A DNA stretch of 23,516 bases from a virus (taxonomy: Duplodnaviria; Heunggongvirae; Uroviricota; Caudoviricetes). The notes beneath the pieces were generated by a model. It ran no database searches. It was not told the DNA's origin and was given only the letters and a program-made list of their open reading frames with translations. The position numbers and the translations under genes are program-made. Shown piece by piece: positions 3,238-22,077 of the stretch (within the stretch, counting starts at the first letter, position 1; each line of letters starts with the position of its first letter). The stretch lies in the IMG/VR virus record IMGVR_UViG_2585427772_000010. One strand, 5' to 3'.

Positions 3238-3509
3238 GTATTCGTATTGAAATTGGCGAACGTTATGTCGTTACCAGTGACAGCTTTCAGTTTATTCTCC
3301 ACGAGAAAAAGAGAGCGGAAAGCGGTAAAAACGCCGGTCAGGAATGGCTGGCGGTGGTTGGTTATTACCCGAAATTAAGCCAGCTCGTTTCCGGCCTGAT
3401 GCATCACGATATTCTGACCGGAAGCGCAAAGTCTTTTGCTGATTTAAACGGGCAGGTTGAGCAACTCAGCAAGCGTTGTTCAGAGGCTTTTGGCTCATAT
3501 GGCCGTTAA
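3234..3509 (+). CDS. Hypothetical early protein (P2 orf83 position)
   Basis: 91-aa ORF, start overlaps orf82 stop; 3' end overlaps the A start by 11 nt. Confidence 0.55.
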   Translation: MSIRIEIGERYVVTSDSFQFILHEKKRAESGKNAGQEWLAVVGYYPKLSQLVSGLMHHDILTGSAKSFADLNGQVEQLSKRCSEAFGSYGR

Positions 3510-5778
3510 AGCCTCCGGGCGTTTTGTCCCTCCGTCAGCATTTGCCGCAGGCACCGGTAAGACGTTTACCGGTGCTTATGCATGGAACGCGCCACGCGAG
3601 GCCGTCGGGCGCGAAAGACCCCTTACACGTGACGAGATGCGTCAGGTGCAAGGTGTTTTATCCACGATTAACCGCCTGCCTTACTTTTTGCGTTCGCTGT
3701 TTACTTCACGCTATGACTACATCCGGCGCAATAAAAGCCCGGTGCACGGGTTTTATTTCCTCACATCCACTTTTCAGCGTCGTTTATGGCCGCGCATTGA
3801 GCGCGTGAATCAGCGCCATGAAATGAACACCGACGCGTCGTTACTGTTTCTGGCAGAGCGTGACCACTATGCGCGCCTGCCGGGAATGAATGACAAGGAG
3901 CTGAAAAAATTTGCCGCCCGTATCTCATCGCAGCTTTTCATGATGTATGAGGAACTCTGCGATGCCTGGGTGGATGCCCATGGCGAAAAAGAATCGCTGT
4001 TTACGGATGAGGCGCAGGCTCACCTGTATGGTCATGTTGCTGGCGCTGCACGTGCTTTCAATATTTCCCCGCTCTACTGGAAAAAATACCGTAAAGGACA
4101 GATGACCACGAGGCAGGCATATTCTGCCATTGCCCGCCTGTTTAACGATGAGTGGTGGACTCATCAGCTTAAAGGCCAGCGTATGCGCTGGCATGAGGCG
4201 TTACTGATTGCTGTCGGGGAGGTCAATAAAGACCGTTCTCCTTATGCCAGTAAACATGCCATTCGTGATGTGCGTGCACGCCGCCAGGCAAATCTGGAAT
4301 TTCTTAAATCGTGTGACCTTGAAAACAGGGAAACCGGCGAGCGCATCGACCTTATCAGTAAGGTGATGGGCAGTATTTCTAATCCTGAAATTCGCCGGAT
4401 GGAGCTGATGAACACCATTGCCGGTATTGAGCGTTACGCCGCAGCAGAGGGTGATGTGGGGATGTTTATCACGCTGACCGCGCCGTCAAAGTATCACCCG
4501 ACACGTCAGGTCGGAAAAGGCGAAAGTAAAACCGTCCAGCTAAATCACGGCTGGAACGATGAGGCATTTAATCCAAAGGATGCGCAGCGTTATCTCTGCC
4601 ATATCTGGAGCCTGATGCGCACGGCATTCAAGGATAATGATTTACAGGTCTACGGTTTGCGTGTCGTCGAGCCACACCACGACGGAACGCCGCACTGGCA
4701 TATGATGCTTTTTTGTAATCCACGCCAGCGTAACCAGATTATTGAAATCATGCGTCGCTATGCGCTCAAAGAGGATGGCGACGAAAGAGGAGCCGCGCGA
4801 AACCGTTTTCAGGCAAAACACCTTAACCGGGGCGGTGCTGCGGGATATATCGCGAAATACATCTCAAAAAACATCGACGGCTATGCACTGGATGGTCAGC
4901 TCGATAATGATACCGGTAGGCCGCTGAAAGACACAGCTGCGGCTGTTACCGCATGGGCGTCAACGTGGCGCATTCCGCAATTTAAAACGGTTGGTCTGCC
5001 GACAATGGGGGCTTACCGTGAACTACGCAAATTGCCTCGCGGCGTCAGCATTGCTGATGAGTTTGACGAGCGCGTCGAGGCTGCACGCGCCGCTGCAGAC
5101 AGTGGTGATTTTGCGTTGTATATCAGCGCGCAGGGCGGGGCAAATGTCCCGCGCGATTGTCAGACTGTCAGGGTCGCCCGTAGCCCGTCGGATGACGTTA
5201 ACGAGTACGAGGAAGAAGTCGAGAGAGTGGTCGGCATTTACGCGCCGCATCTCGGCGCGCGTCATATTCATATCACCAGAACGACGGACTGGCGCATTGT
5301 TCCGAAAGTGCCGGTCGTTGAGCCTTTGACTTTAAAAAGCGGCATCGCCGCGCCTCGGAGTCCTGTCAATAACTGTGGAAAGCTCACCGGTGGTGATACT
5401 TCGTTACCGGCTCCCACACCTTCTGAGCACGCCGCAGCAGTGCTTAATCTGGTTGATGACGGTGTTATTGAATGGAATGACCAGGAGGTCGTGAGGGCGC
5501 TCAGGGGCGCATTAAAACGAGGTCTGAGAAGACCAAACCGTCAGCAAAGAAACGGAAGCCCGTTAAAACAGCATGAAATGGCACCATCGGCCAGACTGAC
5601 CCGGTCAGAACGAATGCAAATTACCCGTATCCGCGTTGACCTTGCTCAGAACGGTATCAGGCCGCAGCGATGGGAGCTTGAGGCGCTGGCGCGTGGAGCA
5701 ATTGTAAATTACGACGGGAAAAAATTCACGTATCCAGTCGCTGATGAGTGGCGGGGATTCTCAGCAGTAATGGAGTGA
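3499..5778 (+). CDS. A: Replication initiation protein A (rolling-circle HUH endonuclease)
   Basis: Long ORF; start placed at the internal ATG 3499 (MAVKASGRF...) by comparison with P2 A as I recall it; contains an HUH-like motif (PHWHMML) and a tyrosine pair (GYIAKYISK) expected for rolling-circle initiators. Confidence 0.9.
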   Translation: MAVKASGRFVPPSAFAAGTGKTFTGAYAWNAPREAVGRERPLTRDEMRQVQGVLSTINRLPYFLRSLFTSRYDYIRRNKSPVHGFYFLTSTFQRRLWPRIERVNQRHEMNTDASLLFLAERDHYARLPGMNDKELKKFAARISSQLFMMYEELCDAWVDAHGEKESLFTDEAQAHLYGHVAGAARAFNISPLYWKKYRKGQMTTRQAYSAIARLFNDEWWTHQLKGQRMRWHEALLIAVGEVNKDRSPYASKHAIRDVRARRQANLEFLKSCDLENRETGERIDLISKVMGSISNPEIRRMELMNTIAGIERYAAAEGDVGMFITLTAPSKYHPTRQVGKGESKTVQLNHGWNDEAFNPKDAQRYLCHIWSLMRTAFKDNDLQVYGLRVVEPHHDGTPHWHMMLFCNPRQRNQIIEIMRRYALKEDGDERGAARNRFQAKHLNRGGAAGYIAKYISKNIDGYALDGQLDNDTGRPLKDTAAAVTAWASTWRIPQFKTVGLPTMGAYRELRKLPRGVSIADEFDERVEAARAAADSGDFALYISAQGGANVPRDCQTVRVARSPSDDVNEYEEEVERVVGIYAPHLGARHIHITRTTDWRIVPKVPVVEPLTLKSGIAAPRSPVNNCGKLTGGDTSLPAPTPSEHAAAVLNLVDDGVIEWNDQEVVRALRGALKRGLRRPNRQQRNGSPLKQHEMAPSARLTRSERMQITRIRVDLAQNGIRPQRWELEALARGAIVNYDGKKFTYPVADEWRGFSAVME

Positions 5779-6107
5779 ACGTCGCCAGTTGCGAAAATTA
5801 TTTACAGGGGGCAGCGTTAAGCATCTAAAGATCTTGTTCTATGATTAGAATGTTTCCTCGTTGCACTCTCGTATAGTTATTTAATGGGAAGATGTACTCT
5901 ATATGTTGTGTTTTGGTGATAAATGAAGCCAAAGGAAGGAGATTTTGCTTGATTGATGGGCGCTCTTTGCTATACACCTTGTATTGAGAAGGAGAAGTAA
6001 TCAAGGATTAAGCTGGCTTTTGTCAAAAATCTGAAAAGCTTTTTTGACTGAATACGATAGCGAGTTGTACTATTTGCGCCCTCAAAAGTAACCGGCGGCT
6101 GGGTAAA

Positions 6108-6482
6108 ATGGGGAAGCAAGGCAAAGGCAAAGGCAACAAAAATCAGGTTAAGGTTACGTGGGCTCAGGCGTGGCGGGATGTAATGATAAGAGCCATGTCT
6201 AATGGTCAGTTGATACCTATTACCATCAGTATTATTTTAATGATTGCTGCATGGAGGTTACCAAAAACAGACTTGTCCAATTTAGCCTTCTCTATTGTTG
6301 ATGGCTTTAAGGAGCATTCCTTGGTTGGTTGGGCTATCTCGGTAATAGTGGGTTTGGCTTGGTCTGCACATGCGCGAATCATGAGGCGCTGTTTTAGTTC
6401 CGAGGCACAGAGAATCGGTAACGAGAAAACAAAGTATCAACAAAGACAGACCACTCAAGCCTTGGGTACAAGTGATAAATAG
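6108..6482 (+). CDS. Small membrane protein with two predicted TM helices (cargo gene 1)
   Basis: 124-aa ORF; lysine-rich N-terminus, hydrophobic segments LIPITISIILMIAAW and LVGWAISVIVGLAWSA; AT-rich; start uncertain (alternative ATGs at 6183 and 6195). Confidence 0.5.
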   Translation: MGKQGKGKGNKNQVKVTWAQAWRDVMIRAMSNGQLIPITISIILMIAAWRLPKTDLSNLAFSIVDGFKEHSLVGWAISVIVGLAWSAHARIMRRCFSSEAQRIGNEKTKYQQRQTTQALGTSDK

Positions 6483-6502
6483 TTGTTTATTTAGGAGTTA
6501 TT

Positions 6503-7060
6503 ATGCTGACAGTGCTGTTTTATGTGCTGTTGGGTTTAGGCGCAGCACACTTCATTTACGAGCGAATCATTTTGCCGTCCATCCGACTTCATTATAGAAA
6601 CCAATTGTTTGCGCTTCGTGATGTCGCTAGGAGGAAAATCATTGATGGAGGTTCCGATACTTCCATGCAAGCGGCAACACTTGTGCATGACTCATTGAAT
6701 AACGCTATCAATAGATTGCATTTACTCACGTTGCCAAACAAATTTCGTGCTCAAAAGCGTATGGCAGAAAACCATGCAATAAGGCAGAAAATTCGGCGTG
6801 AGATAGATGTTTTCAAACGCTGTGATGATAGAGAAGTTGTTGATGTACTGTTTAAATCCGGTCGGATACTTGAAAATGTACTGTTATTCAATAGCTTAAT
6901 GTTATTGCTTTACATGTTTCCATTTGTCCTTGCTGTATGGTTCTGTGTTAGGGTCATAAAGACAGCAAGTAGTTTAGTACAGTGGGTCAAAGGAAGAGAT
7001 TTAGAGGAAGCTATAATGCTGCTTCCTGATACTCAGGTTGAAAAGGTTGTATACGCATAA
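6503..7060 (+). CDS. Membrane protein with N- and C-terminal hydrophobic helices (cargo gene 2)
   Basis: 185-aa ORF; AGGAG 6 nt upstream of the ATG; 20-nt gap from gene 1 (operon); hydrophobic N-terminus (LTVLFYVLLGLGAAHFIY) and C-proximal helix (LLFNSLMLLLYMFPFVLAVWFCV); followed by a terminator. Confidence 0.65.
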   Translation: MLTVLFYVLLGLGAAHFIYERIILPSIRLHYRNQLFALRDVARRKIIDGGSDTSMQAATLVHDSLNNAINRLHLLTLPNKFRAQKRMAENHAIRQKIRREIDVFKRCDDREVVDVLFKSGRILENVLLFNSLMLLLYMFPFVLAVWFCVRVIKTASSLVQWVKGRDLEEAIMLLPDTQVEKVVYA

Positions 7061-7089
7061 AAATCACCCCTTAGGGGGTGATTTTTTTA
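7061..7089 (+). terminator. Rho-independent terminator
   Basis: ATCACCCC-TTAG-GGGGTGAT hairpin followed by a 7-T run immediately after the 6503-7060 stop. Confidence 0.7.
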
Positions 7090-7299
7090 CATGACTTTTG
7101 ATTAGCTGACATTGTAAATCCGCATGTATCAGATGCATTGTTTTGCATGTGGAAATGGGTGTTTTCACTGCCAGCTATCGCTACATGTAGCAAAAACACG
7201 GGCTTAATAAGAAATCATTCTGCCATAAGGCATAACTTCCCCGCGTGCTCAGGTATTGACGTCATAGATATGGATCTTTTTTAATCAAGGTATGGTATT

Positions 7300-8247
7300 A
7301 TGAAGATATTTATTAGTTGGTCAGGTCAGGACAGCCTGGAGATAGCAAAAGTATTACGGGATTGGATACCGAATGTTATTCAAGTAGCTGAGCCGTACGT
7401 ATCAGCGGAAGATATTGATAAAGGCACTCGCTGGGCGACTGATATATCAAAGGAACTTGATGACTCTTCTTATGGGATTATTTGCCTTACAAAAAATAAT
7501 ATTAATGCACCGTGGATAAATTTTGAGGCGGGGGCTTTAGGTAAAAAGGTTGATAAGAGCCGGGTTAGTCCTTTCTTGTTTAAAATTAAACCATCTGAGA
7601 TAACAGGCCCAATATTACAATTCCAGTATACTCGTTCGGATGATAAGAACGATATTTTGAAGTTGATGTTGTCAATAAATAATCAAGCAGGATTTTTGAC
7701 TGAAGAACGCTTAACTAAAGCTTTCGAGCAATGGTGGCCAAGTTTAGAGCGTGAGTTAGATAACATTCAAGATATTAACCCTGTAGATAAAGATTCCACT
7801 AAAAAAACAAAAGGTGATTCGACTTCTGAGATACAAAATCTTTCCAAAATTGTTGAAAGTTTGCTGGATATTAGCCGAACAAATCACCAATTATTGCGTG
7901 ATCCAGCATCATTATTGCCAGAAGAATATGTTAGCAAAATAATAAACAGGGAAGGGCGTAAAGAAACTGTTTTAAAAATTGTAGCTTCTGATTTATTATC
8001 CATGCATCATTCACTAATTCGTGTAAAAAGAAGATTTATTCGTCGTGGTATTGATGAAACATCTAGGAGCGAGTTAATTGAATCATTAAATAAAATGATA
8101 ATGGATTGTTCTAGAGTAATCGCTCACTTAGATAATTATTGTGGGGCTTCATCAAACAATATGTTCAATAGTGCGCTTAGATTGCGGACCAGAAATTTAA
8201 TTGACATGATGGATGAGGAGGATGCAGAACGGGATGAAATGGAATAA
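7300..8247 (+). CDS. TIR-like domain protein with uncharacterised helical C-terminal half (cargo gene 3)
   Basis: 315-aa ORF; N-terminal ~130 aa carries the bacterial TIR-like pattern (KIFISWSGQD ... GIICLTKNN ... PWINFEAG) with a glutamate at the position of the catalytic Glu of TIR NADases; C-terminal ~170 aa is charged/helical and unrecognised. The domain call is from motif reading only. Confidence 0.6.
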   Translation: MKIFISWSGQDSLEIAKVLRDWIPNVIQVAEPYVSAEDIDKGTRWATDISKELDDSSYGIICLTKNNINAPWINFEAGALGKKVDKSRVSPFLFKIKPSEITGPILQFQYTRSDDKNDILKLMLSINNQAGFLTEERLTKAFEQWWPSLERELDNIQDINPVDKDSTKKTKGDSTSEIQNLSKIVESLLDISRTNHQLLRDPASLLPEEYVSKIINREGRKETVLKIVASDLLSMHHSLIRVKRRFIRRGIDETSRSELIESLNKMIMDCSRVIAHLDNYCGASSNNMFNSALRLRTRNLIDMMDEEDAERDEME

Positions 8248-8791
8248 TCAATTTTGACTAATCATAAATAATTTTGCATATATAAACTTATAATGCCGCA
8301 GCCGCTATTTTTCAGCGGCTGTATATCGCTTATAATGGGTATGTTATTTTTATTTTGATAAAATCATTAAAATTGTCGATGTTATATGAATGCACATGTA
8401 TTATTAATGTTAGAAGATTATGCCTGCTTACGGCTATTGTGCTGAATTCAACTATGAACGCATCAGTATTAAAATCGTTCCATGAAATGTTCTTCGTCTA
8501 CAGCAGATGATGGGCAACGAAAAAATGACGCTGAGTGAGTTGGTCGGGGAGAATTGTTAGAGGTATTTATGGAGTGGTTTAATAATATCGGTCAATCCTG
8601 AGTTGCAGCATCACATAGACGATAGGGAATCTCTCCAGTCGTTCTGGAATGGCAGCGTTGAACAACAAGCACAGCGAGGCGTTAGATGCCCATCAGATTG
8701 ACACAGAGGGTTTATGAATCGCTGGGATTTACTTAGTTTGAAAAATAATATATTTATATGTTTTTGTATTGTGTTTGTTAAGGAGTTTGGA

Positions 8792-8998
8792 TTGAAAAGA
8801 AAACTGATTTGTGTTATGGCTTTTTGGGGGGCGTTGCTGGCTGGTTGTAATGAGAGTAATAAAAAAGAAGTTGAGGGTTGTATTGAAAGAGGTGTCCAAT
8901 ATTTTATAGAGATTGGTTCTTACCCTAAATTAAGTGATGGGCGTGATGCTGTAAAAGTTGCTACTGAACGTTGTAATAGAACAATAACGGCTTTCTGA
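8792..8998 (+). CDS. Small predicted lipoprotein (cargo gene 4)
   Basis: Track ORF 8714-8998; preferred start is the in-frame TTG at 8792, preceded by AAGGAG (8780-8785), giving a classical lipoprotein signal peptide (KRK, hydrophobic core, lipobox LLAG-C); about 49-aa mature protein with three further Cys. Confidence 0.5.
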   Translation: MKRKLICVMAFWGALLAGCNESNKKEVEGCIERGVQYFIEIGSYPKLSDGRDAVKVATERCNRTITAF

Positions 8999-9000
8999 TA

Positions 9001-9918
9001 ATGGATTATACGAGCTATATAATAGGACAGCTTCAGGTTGAGGATATTATTGATGCAATTAAAGGCGTTAATAATACTAATGTCATAAAAGATTATGTGC
9101 TGCCTGTAGTATTACCAATTATATCTTCTGTGCTGAGTTACTTTATTGCAACTAGGTTGTTTTATCGGCAGGAGGACCTTAAAGCACAAAGAAGAAAGGT
9201 AAGCGTTGTAAATAAATGTATTTATGACTACTTTTCTGCAATGACAACGTTGTTGCAAATTAAAGGGAATTATTATGGTGGGGTAAGTATAAGTGAAAAT
9301 CCTATCGAGAGGGCTTTAGCTTTTCCTGTTGTGGTTTTTTCTGGTGCTCCTCTATCATCAGATTTAAGTGAGTTGGCCTGTATATTGAGTCAAAAGGGAG
9401 TAGGGAATAATAGAGAGCCAGCAAAGACTACTAACTGGGGGGATGCTTTTGCTGTTAGTGATATAGCAAGAAGGTTTAACAGCCTATTGGCTGCATTAAA
9501 TGTTAGGAATGATTTTGATGACACCTATAGAGGAATGATTATTGAATCAACAGGTTCACCTTTGCCTACGATGCGTTTTAAAAATGATGATATTGTTAAT
9601 GCTATAGGTAGTAATAAGGCAGCTTATTACATTGATATTACTGAGCAAATAATGATTATGATAGATGTTTTGTTGCTTGATATTAATCTGTTGCTCAAAG
9701 AGTTGCCATTGTATGCTGAATCGCTGTTTGACAAAAGAGTAATGCAAGAAGATTCAGGGATTCTTAAATTCAATGATTTGCACGAACGTTTTCCTCTACT
9801 TATGAAACCTGTAACGCCACCTTCGATTAAACTCATGTCTGATTATTTGGGGTACAGTGAAGATGAGATCTTACGACGCTATCCATACCCGTTCTTTAAT
9901 ATGCATGATTGTGAATGA
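9001..9918 (+). CDS. Uncharacterised 305-aa protein with one N-proximal TM helix (cargo gene 5)
   Basis: ATG 2 nt after the lipoprotein stop (coupled); hydrophobic segment VLPVVLPIISSVLSYFIATRLF; AT-rich; no family recognised. Confidence 0.7.
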   Translation: MDYTSYIIGQLQVEDIIDAIKGVNNTNVIKDYVLPVVLPIISSVLSYFIATRLFYRQEDLKAQRRKVSVVNKCIYDYFSAMTTLLQIKGNYYGGVSISENPIERALAFPVVVFSGAPLSSDLSELACILSQKGVGNNREPAKTTNWGDAFAVSDIARRFNSLLAALNVRNDFDDTYRGMIIESTGSPLPTMRFKNDDIVNAIGSNKAAYYIDITEQIMIMIDVLLLDINLLLKELPLYAESLFDKRVMQEDSGILKFNDLHERFPLLMKPVTPPSIKLMSDYLGYSEDEILRRYPYPFFNMHDCE

Positions 9919-10021
9919 ATGTGCATATGTCAGAAGCCGTTTTTATTGTCAGTTATCGTCAGTGCTGGCGCGCTCTTGGAGTGTTCATGCAACTGCATTA
10001 AAACCGCCCCACGAAGCGGGC

Positions 10022-10040
10022 GGGCGAGGCGGGGAAAGCA
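10022..10040. other. cos site (19-nt cohesive-end sequence of P2-type phages)
   Basis: Exact GGCGAGGCGGGGAAAGCAC, which I recall as the P2/P4 cohesive end, in the expected position between the old/tin locus and Q. Confidence 0.6.
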
Positions 10041-10171
10041 CTGCGCGCTGGCGGGGGTGATGATTGTCTGAGCGCGTCGTGATGGCGTTTAGATTGTGCG
10101 CCGGGGCGTTGGTGTGTCTGCGGGGTGTTTTGTACAGTGGCGAGCGTGTGAGGGCGTGATGACGGGGGTGT

Positions 10172-10193
10172 AAAAAAGCCGCCCGCAGGCGGC
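10172..10193 (-). terminator. Rho-independent terminator downstream of Q
   Basis: GCCGCC-CGCA-GGCGGC hairpin with an A-run on the plus strand (a T-run on the minus strand) immediately 3' of the Q stop. Confidence 0.5.
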
Positions 10194-10198
10194 GATGT

Positions 10199-11233
10199 TC
10201 AGCCGTTGTCAGTGTCCAGTGAGTAGTTTTTAAAGCGGATGACCTCCTGACCGAGCCAGCCGTTTATTTCCCGAATCCTGTCCTGTAACGGGATAAGTTC
10301 ATTGCGGACAAAGACCTTTGCCACTTTCTCAATATCGCCCAGCGACCCGACGTTTTCCGGCTTGCCACCCATCAACTGAAAGGGGATGCGGTGCGCGTCC
10401 AGCAGGTCAGCGGCGCTGGCTTTTTTGATATTAAAAAAATCGTCCTTCGTGGCCACTTCACTGAGCGGGATAATTTTAATGCCGTCGGCTTTTCCCTGTG
10501 GGGCATAGAGAAACAGGTTTTTAAAGTTATTGCGGCCTTTCGACTTCACCATGTTTTCGCGGAGCATTTCGATATCGTTGCGATCCTGCACGGCATCAGT
10601 GACGTACATGATGTATCCGGCATGTGCGCCGTTTTCGTAATACTTGCGGCGGAACAGCGTGGCCGACTCATTCAGCCAGGCAGAGTTAAGGGCGCTGAGA
10701 TATTCCGGCAGACCGTACAGCTCCTGATTAATATCCGGCTCCAGCAGGTGAAACACGGAGCCGGGCGCGAAAGGTGTCGGCTCGTTGAAGGACGGCACCC
10801 ACCAGTAAACATCCTCCTCCACGCCACGGCGGGGATATTTTGCCGGGGAGGGTTCCAGTCTGATGACCTTACCGGTGGTGCTGTAACGCTTTTCCAGAAA
10901 CGCATTACCGAATACCAGAAAATCCAGCACAAAGCGGCTGAAATCCTGCTGAGAAAGCCACGGGTGTGGGATAAACGTTGAGGCCAGAATGTTACGTTTG
11001 ACGTAAATCGGTGAGCTGTGATGCACGGCAGCACGCAGGCTTTTTGCCAGACCGGTAAAGCTGACTGGTGGCTCATACCATCTGCCGTTACTGATGCACT
11101 CGACGTAATCCAGAATGTCACGGCGGTCGAGTACCGGCACCGGCTCACCAAAGGTGAATGCCTCCATTTTCGGGGCGCTGGCGGTCATTTTTTTTGCCGC
11201 AGGTTGCGGTGTTTTCCCTTTTTTCTTGCTCAT
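10199..11233 (-). CDS. Q: Portal protein Q
   Basis: 344-aa ORF, same length and position as P2 Q; start ATG overlaps the P stop (TGATG). Confidence 0.9.
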   Translation of the reverse strand: MSKKKGKTPQPAAKKMTASAPKMEAFTFGEPVPVLDRRDILDYVECISNGRWYEPPVSFTGLAKSLRAAVHHSSPIYVKRNILASTFIPHPWLSQQDFSRFVLDFLVFGNAFLEKRYSTTGKVIRLEPSPAKYPRRGVEEDVYWWVPSFNEPTPFAPGSVFHLLEPDINQELYGLPEYLSALNSAWLNESATLFRRKYYENGAHAGYIMYVTDAVQDRNDIEMLRENMVKSKGRNNFKNLFLYAPQGKADGIKIIPLSEVATKDDFFNIKKASAADLLDAHRIPFQLMGGKPENVGSLGDIEKVAKVFVRNELIPLQDRIREINGWLGQEVIRFKNYSLDTDNG

Positions 11234-11795
11234 CAGTAAAACTCCAGAATGGTGGATGTCAGCGGGGTGCTGATACCGGCGGTGAGTGGCTCATTTAACA
11301 GGGCGTGCATGGTCGCCCAGGCGAGGTCGGCGTGGCTGGCTTCCTCGCTACGGCTGGCCTCATAGGTGGCGCTGCGTCCGCTGCTGGTCATGGTCTTGCG
11401 GATAGCCATGAACGAGCTGGTGATGTCGGTGGCGCTGCGTCCGCTGCTGGTCATGGTCTTGCGGATAGCCATGAACGAGCTGGTGATGTCGGTGGCGCTG
11501 ACGTCATATTCCAGACAGCCACGGCGGATGACGTCTTTTGCCTTGAGCACCATTGCGGTTTTCATTTCCGGCGTGTAGCGGATATCGCGTGCGGCGGGAT
11601 AGAACGAGCGCACGAGCTGGAACACGCCGACACCGAGGCCGGTGGCATCAATTCCGATGTATTCGACGTTGTATTTTTCGGTGAGTTTGCGGATGGATTC
11701 CGCCTGAGTGGCAAAGTCCATGCCTTTCCACTGGTGACGCTCAAGTATTCTGAATTTACCTCCGGCCACCACCGGCGGTGCCAGCACCACGCATC
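11233..11795 (-). pseudogene. P: Terminase large subunit P, C-terminal fragment only, carrying an in-frame 63-bp tandem duplication
   Basis: Only ~185 codons remain of a gene that is ~590 codons in P2; the reading frame runs into the K fragment on the other strand; the upstream promoter and N-terminal part are absent. Confidence 0.8.
11368..11493. repeat. Perfect 63-bp tandem duplication (2 copies) inside the P remnant
   Basis: 11368-11430 and 11431-11493 are identical; the 10-mer GGTGGCGCTG precedes each copy and a partial third GGCGCTG follows; encodes a duplicated 21-aa segment (SATDITSSFMAIRKTMTSSGR). Confidence 0.9.
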
Positions 11796-11797
11796 CG

Positions 11798-12250
11798 GCG
11801 CTGGCCGTGTCCGAAGGGACGGCGAATCATCCGCTGACGAAAAACCGGGGCTATGACGTGATAGTCACCGGACTGGACGGAAAGCCGGAAATTTTCACCG
11901 ACTACAGTGACCACCCGTTCGCACATGGTCGACCGGCGAAGGTGTTTAACCGTCGCGGTGAAAAATCCACGGCCTCCGGTCGCTATCAGCAGCTTTACCT
12001 GTTCTGGCCGCATTACCGCAAACAGCTTGCCCTGCCGGATTTCAGTCCGTTGTCACAGGACAGGCTCGCCATTCAGTTGATCCGCGAACGCGGTGCACTG
12101 GATGACATCCGGGCGGGACGCATTGAGCGCGCCATTTCACGCTGTCGCAATATCTGGGCGTCCCTGCCGGGTGCCGGTTACGGTCAGCGTGAGCATCCAC
12201 TGGAAAAACTGGTCACCGTCTGGCGTACCGCCGGCGGCGTACCGGCTTAA
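11798..12250 (+). pseudogene. K: Endolysin K (lambda R-like lytic transglycosylase), 5'-truncated
   Basis: Translation (SEGTANHPLTKNRGYDVIV ... IWASLPGAGYGQ) aligns with lambda R from about its residue 17 onward; the catalytic-Glu motif SEGT is retained but the N-terminus, RBS and upstream holin gene are missing. Confidence 0.75.
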
Positions 12251-14194: not shown

Positions 14195-14980
14195 TTATGA
14201 GTGATTTTTATTTGATGCTTTGTATTCTAAAACCTTCTTATTGGCGTAAAAGAATTTTGTATATGACAGGAATATAACCAGACCTGAAGTGAAATAGACG
14301 AGGGATAGTATTAATAATGCTTTTTTGCGACTGTTATTATCTTTAATCTCCAGGCTTAACCATTCGGAGTCCTCCTCGTTTAGCTGTAAGAGCTTATTGC
14401 AGGCGATTTCAGGAAGTGTGTCTTTTATAAATACGTTTTGCAGTCTCTTGCAATCGGCAAGGCTATAAGTTTTATTAAATTCAACTGCTTTATTTTTGAA
14501 GGATAAAAGAACTTTGTCACTATAAACATAGTACATCATGTTTTTATATGGTATGCCTATGGCATCCCTTACTATAACGGATTGTTCGTTGTGTATGTAA
14601 CATGCGAGGAGAATGTAAAAAATACTGGCCAGAATTACAATTATTGTTTTAATTATGTGTGGTGGTTTTGTTATGTCACCCCAGATGCGAGTAAGGAAAA
14701 AATACGATGTTTTTAGTTTTCCATCAATCAGTCCCTGCTGTATCATTCTCACATTTTCAATGCCTGATACATTGATTCCGTTAATTATTTTAAATAGTTG
14801 AATGTCGCGCCACTCGCGGTCAAGTCTTTTTAATTTTTTGTCTGAATATCCAAAATTGAAATAATGTGCAATAAGCCTCATAAGGTTACTTTTACCAAAG
14901 CTAAAAAATGCTAATACTGCAAAGCTACAAAGGAAAAAAACGATTAGCCCCCACACATTAGTCACATTATAGCTGACCAT
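14195..14980 (-). CDS. AT-rich multi-pass membrane protein at the orf30 position, antisense to the late genes
   Basis: 261-aa ORF; AAGGAGAG 5 nt upstream of the ATG on the minus strand; about three hydrophobic helices; composition visibly more AT-rich than flanking S and V. Confidence 0.7.
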   Translation of the reverse strand: MVSYNVTNVWGLIVFFLCSFAVLAFFSFGKSNLMRLIAHYFNFGYSDKKLKRLDREWRDIQLFKIINGINVSGIENVRMIQQGLIDGKLKTSYFFLTRIWGDITKPPHIIKTIIVILASIFYILLACYIHNEQSVIVRDAIGIPYKNMMYYVYSDKVLLSFKNKAVEFNKTYSLADCKRLQNVFIKDTLPEIACNKLLQLNEEDSEWLSLEIKDNNSRKKALLILSLVYFTSGLVIFLSYTKFFYANKKVLEYKASNKNHS

Positions 14981-14989
14981 TACGCTCTC

Positions 14990-15060
14990 CTTGAATGTTG
15001 TCTGGTAGTTCTACAAATGAATCCAGATAGCATAACTTTTATATATTGTGCAATCTCACA
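14990..15060 (+). promoter_or_regulatory. Candidate late promoter upstream of V (P_V)
   Basis: Imperfect dyad TTGTCTGGTAGTTCTACAA about 50-60 bp upstream of V and an AT-rich -10-like TATATAT; P2 has an Ogr-dependent late promoter at this position. Spacing does not exactly match the TGT-N12-ACA consensus as I recall it. Confidence 0.3.
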
Positions 15061-15063
15061 TGC

Positions 15064-15699
15064 ATGAACACTCTCGCAAATATTCAGGAACTCGCGCGCG
15101 CACTGCGCAACATGATTCGCACCGGCATTATCGTCGAAACCGACCTTAACGCCGGTCGCTGCCGCGTGCAGACCGGCGGCATGTGCACCGACTGGCTTCA
15201 GTGGCTGACCCATCGCGCCGGTCGTTCGCGCACATGGTGGGCACCTTCCGTGGGGGAACAGGTGCTGATTCTGTCCGTGGGCGGTGAACTCGACACGGCG
15301 TTTGTTCTGCCGGGGATTTATTCCGGCGATAATCCCGCGCCGTCTGCGTCGGCGGATGCCCTGCATATCCGTTTCCCTGACGGGGCGGTGATTGAGTATG
15401 AACCCGAAACCAGTGCGCTCACGGTAAGCGGAATTAAAACGGCCAGCGTGACGGCTTCCGGTTCTGTTACTGCCACTGTGCCGGTGGTCATGGTGAAAGC
15501 GTCAACCCGCATCACCCTGGACACACCGGAGGTGGTCTGCACCAACAGGCTGATTACCGGCACGCTGGAAGTGCAGAAGGGCGGGACGATGCGCGGCAAC
15601 ATTGAACACACCGGCGGTGAACTCTCATCAAACGGTAAGGTACTGCATACCCATAAACACCCCGGCGACAGCGGCGGCACAACCGGGAGTCCTCTATGA
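15064..15699 (+). CDS. V: Baseplate spike/assembly protein V
   Basis: Start at internal ATG 15064 (MNTLANIQ...) of track ORF 15046-15699; 211 aa, as in P2 V. Confidence 0.85.
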   Translation: MNTLANIQELARALRNMIRTGIIVETDLNAGRCRVQTGGMCTDWLQWLTHRAGRSRTWWAPSVGEQVLILSVGGELDTAFVLPGIYSGDNPAPSASADALHIRFPDGAVIEYEPETSALTVSGIKTASVTASGSVTATVPVVMVKASTRITLDTPEVVCTNRLITGTLEVQKGGTMRGNIEHTGGELSSNGKVLHTHKHPGDSGGTTGSPL

Positions 15700-20287: not shown

Positions 20288-20881
20288 ATGTTTACTAAGC
20301 GACGATTAAAAAATATTAACTGGGAGGCAAGTTCAGTGATTCTTGCTATGGTTCTCTTTGTTGGAAATATATTTTATACAAATCATCGTGATGATATAAG
20401 CATGGAGGCTGAGAGGGACAGTATCAGAACAATGTTTGCATATGAAATCGCTAATAACCATCGCGCTCTCACTTTTCTTGATAAAACGAGACATATTGGC
20501 TTTGACGAAAATTCGGAGCATTTTGTTGGCGAGCCTTTTGCCATTAATGTCAAATCATTAGGGGGACCTCGCTTACAGATTGCATTAAACCAGACTGATA
20601 AAGTGTTTAAATCCTACTTCGGCGAATTAAGTAAGCTTGATAAAGAGGATGTTACTCTTCTTATGGACTATTACCATGAGCAAAGCATCCTGCTGGAGCG
20701 TGTAAAATCTACGTTACAGAAGATGAAAAGTGGTAATGATATTAAAGTTGATATTGATGGTTGCTTATTAGAAGAACACTTCATGAATGAGCTTAATCTT
20801 TCTAATATTTTGCTTAAACGCTATAGCTATTTATTATCACAACACGCTAAGGAACATAAAACAAAAGATTTACATAATTGA
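20288..20881 (+). CDS. AT-rich membrane-anchored protein at the Z/fun position
   Basis: 197-aa ORF; AAGGTG 5 nt upstream of the ATG; single N-terminal TM helix (SSVILAMVLFVGNIFY); flanked by AT-rich intergenic DNA between G and the FI remnant. Confidence 0.65.
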   Translation: MFTKRRLKNINWEASSVILAMVLFVGNIFYTNHRDDISMEAERDSIRTMFAYEIANNHRALTFLDKTRHIGFDENSEHFVGEPFAINVKSLGGPRLQIALNQTDKVFKSYFGELSKLDKEDVTLLMDYYHEQSILLERVKSTLQKMKSGNDIKVDIDGCLLEEHFMNELNLSNILLKRYSYLLSQHAKEHKTKDLHN

Positions 20882-21212: not shown

Positions 21213-21326
21213 ATGAGTGACTATCATCACGGCGTGCAGGTGCTGGAGATTAACGACGGCACCCGCGTCATTTCCACCGTATCCACAGCCATTGTCGGCA
21301 TGGTCTGCACGGCTAGCCTCCCGTAA
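21213..21326 (+). pseudogene. FI: Tail sheath FI, 5' stub (37 codons then stop)
   Basis: [35 protein letters not shown] matches the start of the P2 sheath protein as I recall it, then leaves frame and hits TAA at 21324-21326. Confidence 0.7.
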
Positions 21327-22077
21327 CAGGCTGGAAGCCAGTGTCGCTCCGTCACTGGCCGGAATTAAAATCCCGCACATCGACCAGTCGCAGGAGTCCG
21401 ATGCGAAATTCCTGACCCGTCTTGCTGAACGCAACGGCGGTGAGGTGTCGGTAAAAATGGGAAAACTGCTGTTTCTCAAAGCGGGGCAGGGGGGGACGGT
21501 CAGCGGTAAAAAAATCCCGCAGATTACCATCACCCGCAGCGACGGCGACCGTCATCATTTTGCGATTGCTGACCGTGGAGCCTACACAGGCGTAACGGCA
21601 AAGTGGTTACACACCAAAGACCCGAAGCCGCAAAAGCAGAAGGTAAAACTGAAACGCAAAAAGAAAGAGAAACACCTGCGCGCACTGGAGCACCCGAAAG
21701 CGAAACCGGTCACGCAGAAGAAAGAGCCAAAAGTACCGGAAGCGCGCGAAGGTGAATACATGGCCGGTGAGGCTGACAACGTTTTTGCCCTGACCACGGT
21801 ATATGCCACGAAAGCACAGGCCATGCGCGCCGCTCAGGCGAAGTGGGATAAACTGCAACGGGGTGTTGCGGAGTTCTCCATCAGCCTGGCTACTGGTCGG
21901 GCAGATATTTACACGGAAACGCCGGTCAGAGTGTCAGGCTTTAAGCGCGTCATAGACGAGCAGGACTGGACAATCACTAAGGTGACACATTTTCTGAATA
22001 ATAGCGGCTTCACGACGTCCCTGGAGCTTGAGGTCAGGCTTTCTGATGTGGAGTACGAAACAGAAGATGATGAGTGA
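21318..22077 (+). pseudogene. D: Tail protein D, 3' fragment (about 250 codons) fused to the FI stub
   Basis: Frame of track ORF 21217-22077 encodes a lysine-rich linker and C-terminal region ending ...LELEVRLSDVEYETEDDE, directly upstream of ogr as in P2; no native start or N-terminal part. Confidence 0.75.

Follow-up and report, generated by a model that had tools for sequence, protein, structure and literature searches.

Genes and signals at the locus

The stretch of caudovirus DNA that was analysed (23,516 nucleotides; IMG/VR record IMGVR_UViG_2585427772_000010; "the window") carries three genes, 2TM, 1TM and TIR, which lie adjacent and co-oriented in that order on the plus strand (Table 1), in the gpA-gpQ cargo hotspot of a defective P2-like prophage. 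Replication gene A (3457-5778) directly precedes the insert, and portal gene Q (10199-11233, minus strand) comes after it, as placed by the RefSeq annotation of a 99.6% identical locus. That annotation, together with the contrast between GC contents of 0.36-0.41 in the trio and 0.53 in gpA and the portal gene, bears out the description of an AT-rich insert directly after gene A that had been given in an initial annotation of the DNA.

Table 1. Features of the hotspot cargo, with positions in the window
Feature	Position	Strand	Basis or remark
Equivalent of the validated pFD240 insert ("2TM + 1TM + TIR", phage AC1)	5843..8633	+	Exact primer sites
Possible promoter of the 2TM gene, TTGACT-18-TACTAT	6044..6073	+	Consensus scan
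2TM protein gene (124 aa), first of module 1	6108..6482	+	PADLOC PDLC02978 2TM-TIR, E = 2.2e-58
"1TM" protein gene (185 aa), second of module 1	6503..7060	+	PADLOC PDLC02977 1TM-TIR, E = 2.7e-75
Intrinsic terminator ending module 1: 12-bp stem, UUAG loop	7059..7086	+	T residues run on to 7088
Conserved 5' region accompanying the TIR gene, where the promoter and ribosome-binding site of module 2 presumably lie	7140..7299	+	Alignment
TIR protein gene (315 aa)	7300..8247	+	PADLOC PDLC03016 TIR-TM, E = 2.3e-118
Codon of E76, candidate catalytic Glu (W72-x3-E76 in WINFEAG)	7525..7527	+	Invariance; AbTir alignment
Hairpin downstream of the TIR gene, without T-run	8298..8322	+	-15.9 kcal/mol, z = -2.9
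Third cargo module: small lipoprotein and 305-aa protein with N-terminal TM	8792..9918	+	Outside the pFD240 insert

The hotspot cargo comes to five genes, not three. The remaining two specify a lipoprotein (68 aa with TTG 8792 as start codon; the open frame reaches back to 8714) whose signal peptide, MKRKLICVMAFWGALLAGC, has a lipobox, and the 305-aa protein. Neither has a match in PADLOC, Pfam or NCBIfam; the two genes are not part of the validated system described below, and in E. coli MS 16-3 they occupy the P2 hotspot with no trio beside them.

The first two genes of the trio are separated by 20 nt (6483-6502) that include an AGGAG ribosome-binding site. The 2TM protein matches its PADLOC profile from end to end (residues 1-124 on profile positions 1-124 of 124), is identical to its counterpart in E. 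coli 0-4, and has two hydrophobic segments (32-52 and 69-87) and basic tails (+6 and +5) that predict an N-in/C-in topology. Its partner matches over residues 1-184 (profile positions 1-183 of 186) and probably crosses the membrane at least twice, its "1TM" label notwithstanding, since an N-terminal TM (1-19) is joined by a 35-residue hydrophobic stretch (122-156). The one operon read at the outset, with a two-TM 124-aa protein and, after a 20-nt gap, a 185-aa membrane protein, thus stands. The AF2 model of the 1TM protein is all-helical (pLDDT 86), with no specific fold match in the structure search; its invariant polar residues are H16, Y19, E20, R28, R32, D40, R43, N66, N67, N70, N130, Y137 and P140. 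No Pfam domain and no known signal-binding domain was found in either protein. The pair is inseparable: the 2TM gene lies immediately upstream of the 1TM gene at 37 of 37 loci, including those of Bacteroidota and Verrucomicrobiota. Distant homologues of the pair occupy ordinary chromosomal contexts; for that reason, and because the two proteins have no recognisable domain, a defence role of the pair by itself is putative.

The third protein consists of a TIR domain (residues ~1-155), a helical C-terminal domain (~174-285) and a disordered tail. The TIR-like N-terminal domain proposed initially is confirmed in two ways: 1) Pfam TIR_2 matches residues 3-113 with 40.5 bits, above the gathering score of 28 (E = 4.7e-10). 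2) The best PDB matches of the AF2 model (pLDDT 72.9) in a Foldseek search are TIR domains (TcpB/BtpA, PdTIR, AbTir, BtTir, SPARTA TIR-APAZ and TLRs), with probabilities of up to 1.00 and, for the best of them, a target TM of ~0.55-0.64. The 315-aa product therefore gives a TIR-fold signal in profile and structure searches alike. AbTir, BtTir, PdTIR and TcpB/BtpA (PDB 8g83, 7uxr, 3h16, 4lqc) are the closest structural matches of the N-terminal domain and share its aligned W-x3-E motif, but identity is only 15-23%, and these proteins have other N-terminal regions and other roles (as virulence factors) or roles that are unknown. The Glu in WINFEAG that had been singled out as potentially catalytic can be identified, provisionally, with E76: it is invariant in 40 diverse homologues and aligns with the Glu of the AbTir WTNYE motif (this alignment is not significant by itself; E = 0.66).

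The "clean terminator" noted after the 1TM gene is real: the hairpin AAAAAUCACCCC-UUAG-GGGGUGAUUUUU (-17.8 kcal/mol; z = -5.5; none of 200 shuffles is as stable) is followed by T residues. A consensus terminator scanner did not call it, probably since the stem is lengthened by A and T runs on its flanks. At pair-only loci elsewhere, the 1TM stop codon is in each case followed directly by a comparable hairpin and T-run. The promoter-like site ahead of the 2TM gene is a mere candidate, because such sites are no more numerous in the region than in shuffles. At the TIR gene the evidence is of a different kind: ~160 nt ahead of it align with the DNA upstream of TIR-only genes in three other P2 hotspots (L016, L011 and L032), while the terminator region does not, and the megablast match of a TIR-only allele to AC1-type loci begins 112 nt upstream of the ATG. 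The proposal that the TIR gene is separately promoted is supported by this conserved 5' region and not by the consensus scan, which found no consensus σ70 promoter upstream of the gene. The hairpin downstream of the TIR gene is a doubtful terminator.

A catalogued anti-phage locus

The three genes make up a known anti-phage locus, Rst_2TM_1TM_TIR, and are almost identical to the type example in the P2-like phage P2_AC1 (NC_070903). The initial annotation had suggested this name tentatively, and had offered a new TIR plus membrane-effector system as the fallback. The name is right and the fallback falls, because three lines of evidence coincide: 1) All three proteins match the PADLOC component models over their full length, with rounded E-values of 2e-58 (2TM), 3e-75 (1TM) and 2e-118 (TIR), in the profile search that the annotation had put forward as a check, which also placed Pfam TIR_2 above its cut-off. 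2) The DNA of the hotspot is 99.6% identical to that of P2_AC1. 3) The forward and reverse primers used to clone pFD240 (sequences from Table S2 of Rousset 2022) match exactly at 5843-5868 (plus strand) and 8609-8633 (minus strand), and between them the DNA shares 99.6-99.9% identity with AC1 and with 14 E. coli genomes. Relative to the AC1 locus, genes, order, spacing and hotspot are the same and the 1TM protein is identical (185/185); the 2TM protein is one Gly-Lys repeat shorter (124 instead of 126 aa), the TIR protein is identical at 314 of 315 residues (residue 283 is Ala here, not Val), and the host prophage is without most terminase and head genes.

The locus, then, is not new: it was discovered and catalogued in 2022, with a clone that proved protective. 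Carried on plasmid pFD240, the insert from AC1 gave E. coli C protection from lambda, LF82_P8 and P2 (Rousset et al. 2022, Cell Host Microbe 30:740; PMC9122126). The phenotype is reported for the AC1 allele only, in E. coli C, and the functional data come only from the three genes cloned together; we found no per-gene deletion or dissection of the trio in the literature. The AC1 clone blocks P2 itself, unlike other P2-hotspot systems.

Do the TIR gene and the membrane pair travel together?

Co-occurrence is confined to near-clonal (~100% identical) AC1-type loci. When IMG/VR loci were required to have ≥2.5 kb of sequence on either side, a partner turned up at two of the 32 with TIR and two of the 14 with 1TM; in context look-ups the corresponding counts are 0 of 11 and 0 of 5. 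(A technical note: the scans were based on conserved peptide patterns, absence of the partner was assessed within about 5-6 kb of the locus, and contig ends truncate some loci.) The closest non-identical relatives are already without the partner, at 74-78% identity for the TIR protein and 85-86% for the 1TM protein. P2 hotspots themselves come in both kinds, TIR-only (L016, L011/12, L032) and pair-only (L017, L021, L085, L086), and either module is sometimes their sole cargo. Natural single-module alleles include WP_096843059, a TIR gene from a P2 hotspot, and pairs from P2-like prophages of Serratia or Proteus and, as a 192-aa variant, from a lambdoid context in E. coli. Family sizes lie ~30-fold apart (1511 against 49 matches, the TIR family being the larger). 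The TIR gene is found single in P2 hotspots, on small Klebsiella plasmids, in other prophages and in chromosomes, and no gene family recurs beside it across 45 lineages; the pair, for its part, occurs without a TIR gene even across phyla. The functional unity of TIR and membrane proteins that was implied at the outset is therefore not supported: comparative genomics yields two separable modules.

One machine or two?

To judge from sequence comparison, the locus is probably a stack of two autonomous transcription units in a hotspot rather than a single three-component machine: this is what the strong terminator, the separate conserved 5' region and the lack of co-occurrence outside the AC1 lineage suggest. 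Module 1 would be the 2TM+1TM operon, with its own promoter region, its genes coupled across 20 nt and its own terminator; two inner-membrane proteins that are always paired would most likely act jointly at the membrane, in exclusion or in the manner of abortive infection. Module 2 would be a self-sufficient single TIR gene with its own 5' region; in its product a helical C-terminal domain follows a TIR domain that has an invariant Glu of catalytic type (E76). This protein would most likely function as SpbK and other stand-alone TIR NADases do: its C-terminal domain would sense a phage component, the TIR domains would cluster, NAD+ would be consumed, and infection would abort.

It is a further step, and one toward which we only lean, to regard the catalogued trio as two independent units brought together by chance in a single phage lineage, each with an activity of its own: a widespread single-gene defence protein combining TIR and helical domains (the family comprises ~1,500 clusters at 90% identity, in phages, small plasmids and chromosomes of Proteobacteria) and an obligate 2TM+1TM pair that ranges from Enterobacterales prophages to Bacteroidota chromosomes. 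On that reading, detection rules that demand the complete trio would overlook nearly all occurrences of either unit.

SpbK, of the Bacillus subtilis element ICEBs1, is a stand-alone TIR NADase whose activator is YonE, the portal protein of SPbeta (PMC8880864, PMC12847820), and stand-alone TIRs have been treated as likely NAD+-depleting effectors by Yirmiya et al. 2025 (10.64898/2025.12.03.692087). Both SpbK and the AC1-type protein are single-gene, mobile-element-borne TIR proteins of ~300 aa with a non-TIR domain, and the latter displays the conserved candidate catalytic Glu and the single-gene mobilisation of the class. By analogy, they may share a logic that leads from a phage protein through TIR clustering and NAD+ hydrolysis to aborted infection. 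Domain order and sensor domain, however, are not comparable, and no relationship was detected in sequence: SpbK appeared neither in PDB sequence searches nor among the 50 Foldseek matches listed, from libraries that may lack an SpbK entry. A literature search turned up no single-gene defence experiment for the AC1-type TIR family.

The principal rival is the integrated, Thoeris-like trio proposed by Rousset et al., in which the TIR protein senses infection and a nucleotide messenger activates the two membrane proteins, killing the cell. It has precedent: several Thoeris types have a TIR protein that signals to effectors with TM segments, among them type II, in which His-ADPR acts on a Macro-TM effector, and newer types with TM effectors (10.1101/2024.01.03.573942, 10.64898/2025.12.03.692087). 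The outward likeness is evident as well, a TIR gene beside transmembrane genes in a defence context, adjacent and co-oriented in AC1 and 14 E. coli genomes, with protection by the three genes cloned together. In Thoeris, TIR and effector genes are conserved together within an operon, and a ligand-binding domain is part of the effector; in AC1-type loci TIR and TM genes are probably separate transcription units, with a terminator between them, that keep company in one near-clonal lineage only, the TIR gene standing alone, with no recurrent neighbour, in 45 others and the pair existing without any TIR even across phyla, and no recognisable signal-binding domain (SLOG, Macro, SAVED, etc.) was found in the TM proteins. 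The integrated trio is, on this reckoning, unlikely, and the published idea of TIR signalling to TM proteins is, as far as genome comparison can tell, not supported, because TIR homologues and pair occur apart elsewhere.

A compromise would have modules of independent origin become functionally coupled in the AC1 lineage alone: TIR-driven NAD+ loss, for example, or ADPR products might potentiate the pair and generate a phenotype (such as the anti-P2 effect that distinguishes the AC1 clone from other P2-hotspot systems) that neither module gives alone. In its favour, 14 of the 5426 complete E. coli genomes, of varied host origin, keep the exact five-gene arrangement at ≥99%, but that degree of conservation reflects recent common descent, not selection for linkage; we think such coupling quite improbable. 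That these are chance ORFs or non-defence cargo with a superficial likeness, for which the only point is that the two membrane proteins are without Pfam domains, is ruled out, to near certainty, by profile E-values of 1e-58 to 1e-118, near identity to a validated clone and invariant residues.

What the two-unit reading would change

As a discovery the locus is unimportant, given the work of 2022; what it usefully leaves is a correction to cataloguing. If the TIR gene and the membrane pair are independent, DefenseFinder and PADLOC, by demanding all three genes, detect just the rare AC1 lineage (14 of 5,426 complete E. coli genomes) and pass over lone TIR genes and TM pairs, which are far commoner; nor should Rst_2TM_1TM_TIR in that case be quoted as an example of TM effectors activated by a TIR messenger. 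From this one hotspot, as many as three minimal modules of defence or exclusion, each of them new, may be definable: the TIR gene, the pair, and the lipoprotein with its 305-aa companion.

Locus anatomy and identity with a catalogued system

The AT-rich insert that carries the trio (the 2TM, 1TM and TIR genes) lies between replication gene A and the portal gene, directly after the former as the initial annotation had it: GC content is 0.41 in the 2TM and 1TM genes and 0.36 in the TIR gene versus 0.53 in the flanking genes. The gene layout described there was also borne out: three ORFs of 124, 185 and 315 aa, all on the + strand, with a measured 20-nt operon gap containing an AGGAG ribosome-binding site between the first two, and a clean terminator behind the second, a hairpin of -17.8 kcal/mol (z = -5.5; 0 of 200 shuffled sequences equally stable). 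(A technical point: this hairpin is absent from the output of the consensus terminator scanner, probably because its stem is lengthened by the flanking A and T runs.)

Features of the hotspot and of the adjoining prophage genes
Feature	Coordinates	Strand	Remarks
Replication gene A	3457-5778		RefSeq annotation of 99.6% identical E. coli locus
2TM gene	6108-6482	+	ORF, 124 aa
1TM gene	6503-7060	+	ORF, 185 aa
Terminator hairpin	7059-7086		directly 3' of 1TM gene; 12-bp stem, UUAG loop, then more T residues
TIR gene	7300-8247	+	ORF, 315 aa
Small lipoprotein gene	8714-8998 (longest ORF)		likely start TTG at 8792; signal peptide MKRKLICVMAFWGALLAGC and lipobox
305-aa protein gene	9001-9918		N-terminal TM
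Portal gene	10199-11233	-	RefSeq annotation of 99.6% identical E. coli locus
Large terminase remnant	11233-11790		C-terminal 185 aa only; Pfam Terminase_6C
Endolysin-like ORF	11807-12250		abuts terminase remnant

The trio is already known, and the window is essentially its type locus, as three observations establish. 1) All three proteins match PADLOC models over their full length: 2TM-TIR (E = 2.2e-58), 1TM-TIR (E = 2.7e-75) and TIR-TM (E = 2.3e-118). 2) Over the entire hotspot (5779-10198), identity to Escherichia phage P2_AC1 (AC1; OV192280 / NC_070903) is 99.6%: the 1TM protein is identical at 185/185 residues, the TIR protein differs by a single residue (A283 here, V in AC1) and the 2TM protein is one Gly-Lys repeat shorter. 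3) Both cloning primers of Rousset et al. 2022 have exact matches in the window (5843-5868, + strand; 8609-8633, - strand), so that 5843-8633 is the validated insert. AC1 was isolated in that study, its lysogen is resistant to lambda and LF82_P8, and the cloned block protects against three phages (PMC9122126). The name Rst_2TM_1TM_TIR, given tentatively in the initial annotation and confirmed here, is used in a later survey citing Rousset et al.; no per-gene dissection or mechanistic follow-up of the trio was found in the searchable literature. The three-gene block is rare (14 of 5,426 complete E. coli genomes), and its copies, at least 99% identical in every case, are by that near-identity uninformative on selection for linkage.

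The GGCAAA (Gly-Lys) repeat at the 5' end of the 2TM gene (6117-6137) differs in copy number between isolates: the protein is 124 aa long here, as in most E. coli copies, and 126 aa in AC1, and in two E. coli genomes the alignments of this region are longer by 6 nt. The cytoplasmic N-tail appears to vary by strand slippage.

The TIR protein

The TIR-like N-terminal domain ascribed to the 315-aa protein is upheld by profile and by fold. Pfam TIR_2 matches at 40.5 bits (curated cut-off 28), and in the AlphaFold model (mean pLDDT 72.9) residues 1-155 form a well-predicted TIR-like alpha/beta domain, after which come long helices (174-285) and a disordered tail; no hydrophobic segment was found. 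The best Foldseek matches in the PDB are TIR domains (probability up to 1.00, target-normalised TM ~0.55-0.64), with the bacterial TcpB/BtpA, PdTIR, AbTir and BtTir first and SPARTA TIR-APAZ and TLR TIR domains also on the list. The protein belongs to a large family, with 1,511 clusters (E at most 1e-3) of ~280-320 aa proteins from Enterobacterales, Burkholderiales and Vibrio. Forty diverse members, when aligned, are strongly conserved over the N-terminal 150 residues and again over a second block beyond the TIR domain (186-210).

The glutamate of WINFEAG, proposed earlier as catalytic, is well supported as a candidate: W72-x3-E76 is invariant in the 40 members, and E76 aligns with the Glu of the AbTir WTNYE motif (a weak alignment, E = 0.66, not significant alone), which we take to be the published catalytic E208, a numbering derived from the construct count.

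One system or two modules?

Several independent lines indicate that the trio is probably a composite of two autonomous units. The first is anatomical: the strong terminator lies between the 2TM+1TM operon and the TIR gene. In five pair-only loci of other phages a GC hairpin and T-run likewise follow at once after the 1TM stop codon, each with a stem of different sequence, while the ~160 nt 5' of the TIR start (~7140-7299) are kept in TIR-only P2 hotspots, in which the terminator region has no counterpart.

Secondly, each unit is found alone. The TIR homologue is a lone gene in eight independent contexts, without 2TM or 1TM homologues within 5 kb (tblastn E < 1): two other P2-like prophages whose whole hotspot is gpA, TIR and portal (E. 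coli, 78% identity; Klebsiella, 74%), small mobilisable Klebsiella plasmids, a Serratia chromosome, a Proteus prophage, another enterobacterial prophage, Massilia and Vibrio. For the Klebsiella-plasmid homologue (61% identity) the protein index lists 365 contig-collection blocks, so that the lone TIR gene has a much wider distribution than the catalogued trio. (On two such contigs of ~8-9 kb, L013 and L014, it is the main cargo beside replicase, MobC/relaxase and RelE/antitoxin genes.) Diverged 1TM genes (four contexts, five loci) each have a 2TM homologue upstream and no TIR gene within 5 kb; the pair is the only hotspot cargo of Serratia and Proteus P2-like prophages, and occupies moron positions close to the lysis genes in E. 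coli and Klebsiella lambdoid prophages.

Thirdly, in a systematic scan (profile HMMs on six-frame ORFs, 101 loci) the 2TM gene directly precedes 1TM in 37/37 loci, with Bacteroidota and Verrucomicrobiota MAGs (25-33% identity) among them. The TIR gene accompanies the pair in no loci but those of AC1 type, each ~100% identical to the window. When the count is restricted to distinct loci flanked by 2.5 kb or more on either side, TIR and pair occur together in 2/32 in the IMG/VR TIR scan, 2/14 in the IMG/VR 1TM scan and 0/3 in the species-dereplicated genome scan. Nor is there a recurrent hidden TIR partner within 2.5 kb across 45 lineages (defined at 90% identity), the commonest neighbour family being a phage HNH or terminase gene (5/45). 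Partner absence applies to ~5-6 kb around each gene, in scans seeded with conserved peptides and on contigs of which some are short. Since for each module the partner is already absent from the nearest non-identical relatives, the junction of the two looks, from sequence comparison, like a single recent event.

The membrane pair

The two-TM prediction for the 124-aa protein is confirmed by hydrophobic segments at 32-52 and 69-87; its basic tails (+6 and +5) indicate an N-in/C-in topology. The 185-aa protein is a membrane protein, as predicted, and "1TM" probably understates its topology, because a 35-residue hydrophobic stretch (122-156) accompanies the N-terminal TM helix. It is modelled (pLDDT 86) as a helical bundle, for which no specific structural relative was found; the strongly conserved polar residues are juxtamembrane (H16, Y19, E20, R28, R32, D40, R43, N66, N67, N70). 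The family, at 49 clusters, is ~30x smaller than that of the TIR protein. The adjacent pairs on the Bacteroidota/Verrucomicrobiota MAG contigs (L024-L030) retain the 1TM juxtamembrane motifs HFIYES..LPS.RL..R..LF.LRD.

Neighbouring cargo and the rest of the prophage

After the trio, and beyond the end of the validated pFD240 insert, come the lipoprotein and 305-aa genes; the arrangement of all five genes is given in Rousset Table S5 (PMC9122126). Neither protein matches a PADLOC (defence), Pfam or NCBIfam model. E. coli MS 16-3 has the two in a P2 hotspot that lacks the trio, and they are a candidate exclusion or defence module. In the AC1 record (locus L001, 5943-6223) the lipoprotein ORF is matched as two overlapping tblastn pieces and has no annotated CDS, a pattern that points to a frameshift in AC1 or to an error in sequencing.

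The prophage is defective. It lacks the N-terminal half of the terminase as well as the scaffold, capsid, small terminase and head-completion genes, and the terminase remnant/endolysin-like junction is contiguous in no complete E. coli genome. Within the remnant, 11365-11505 is a 63-bp tandem duplication (2.2 copies, 98% match; 21 codons, in frame). A second AT-rich island (14195-15366, - strand, GC 0.35-0.40), which gene order equates with the 'orf30' variable locus of P2, holds a 261-aa ORF (phrog_2407, unknown function) and one of 128 aa, neither with a Pfam or PADLOC match: another uncharacterised cargo site. A third, which follows the tail-fibre assembly gene and corresponds in place to P2 Z/fun, holds a 197-aa ORF (20288-20881; phrog_3829, unknown function; no Pfam or PADLOC match). 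The gpD homologue that follows (21217-22077) covers profile positions 106-304 only, which suggests that a second deletion took out the tail sheath, tube and tape-measure genes.

Mechanism and implications

How might such a composite work? Rousset et al. proposed that the TIR protein signals to the two membrane proteins. Comparative genomics lends this no support, and no known ligand-binding domain was found in either the 2TM or the 1TM protein. The two modules probably act independently. On the best-supported model, argued by analogy, the TIR protein would be a stand-alone NADase of the SpbK type: its non-TIR part would recognise a phage component, the TIR domains would then cluster and hydrolyse NAD+, and infection would abort. 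SpbK, a phage-triggered TIR NADase, and YonE have been shown to follow this course (PMC12847820), and Yirmiya et al. 2025 (10.64898/2025.12.03.692087) consider stand-alone TIRs likely NAD+-depleting effectors, not signal generators. The 2TM and 1TM proteins, given their obligate pairing, the N-in/C-in 2TM topology and the conserved 1TM polar motifs, probably form a hetero-oligomeric inner-membrane complex that would exclude incoming DNA or kill the cell; a defence role for the pair alone is only putative, because its distant homologues lie in ordinary chromosomal neighbourhoods.

What is new here is only the re-reading of a catalogued system as two stacked modules, or three with the neighbouring pair. 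One of these, 2TM+1TM, is an uncharacterised cross-phylum membrane-protein pair that extends well beyond the Enterobacterales.
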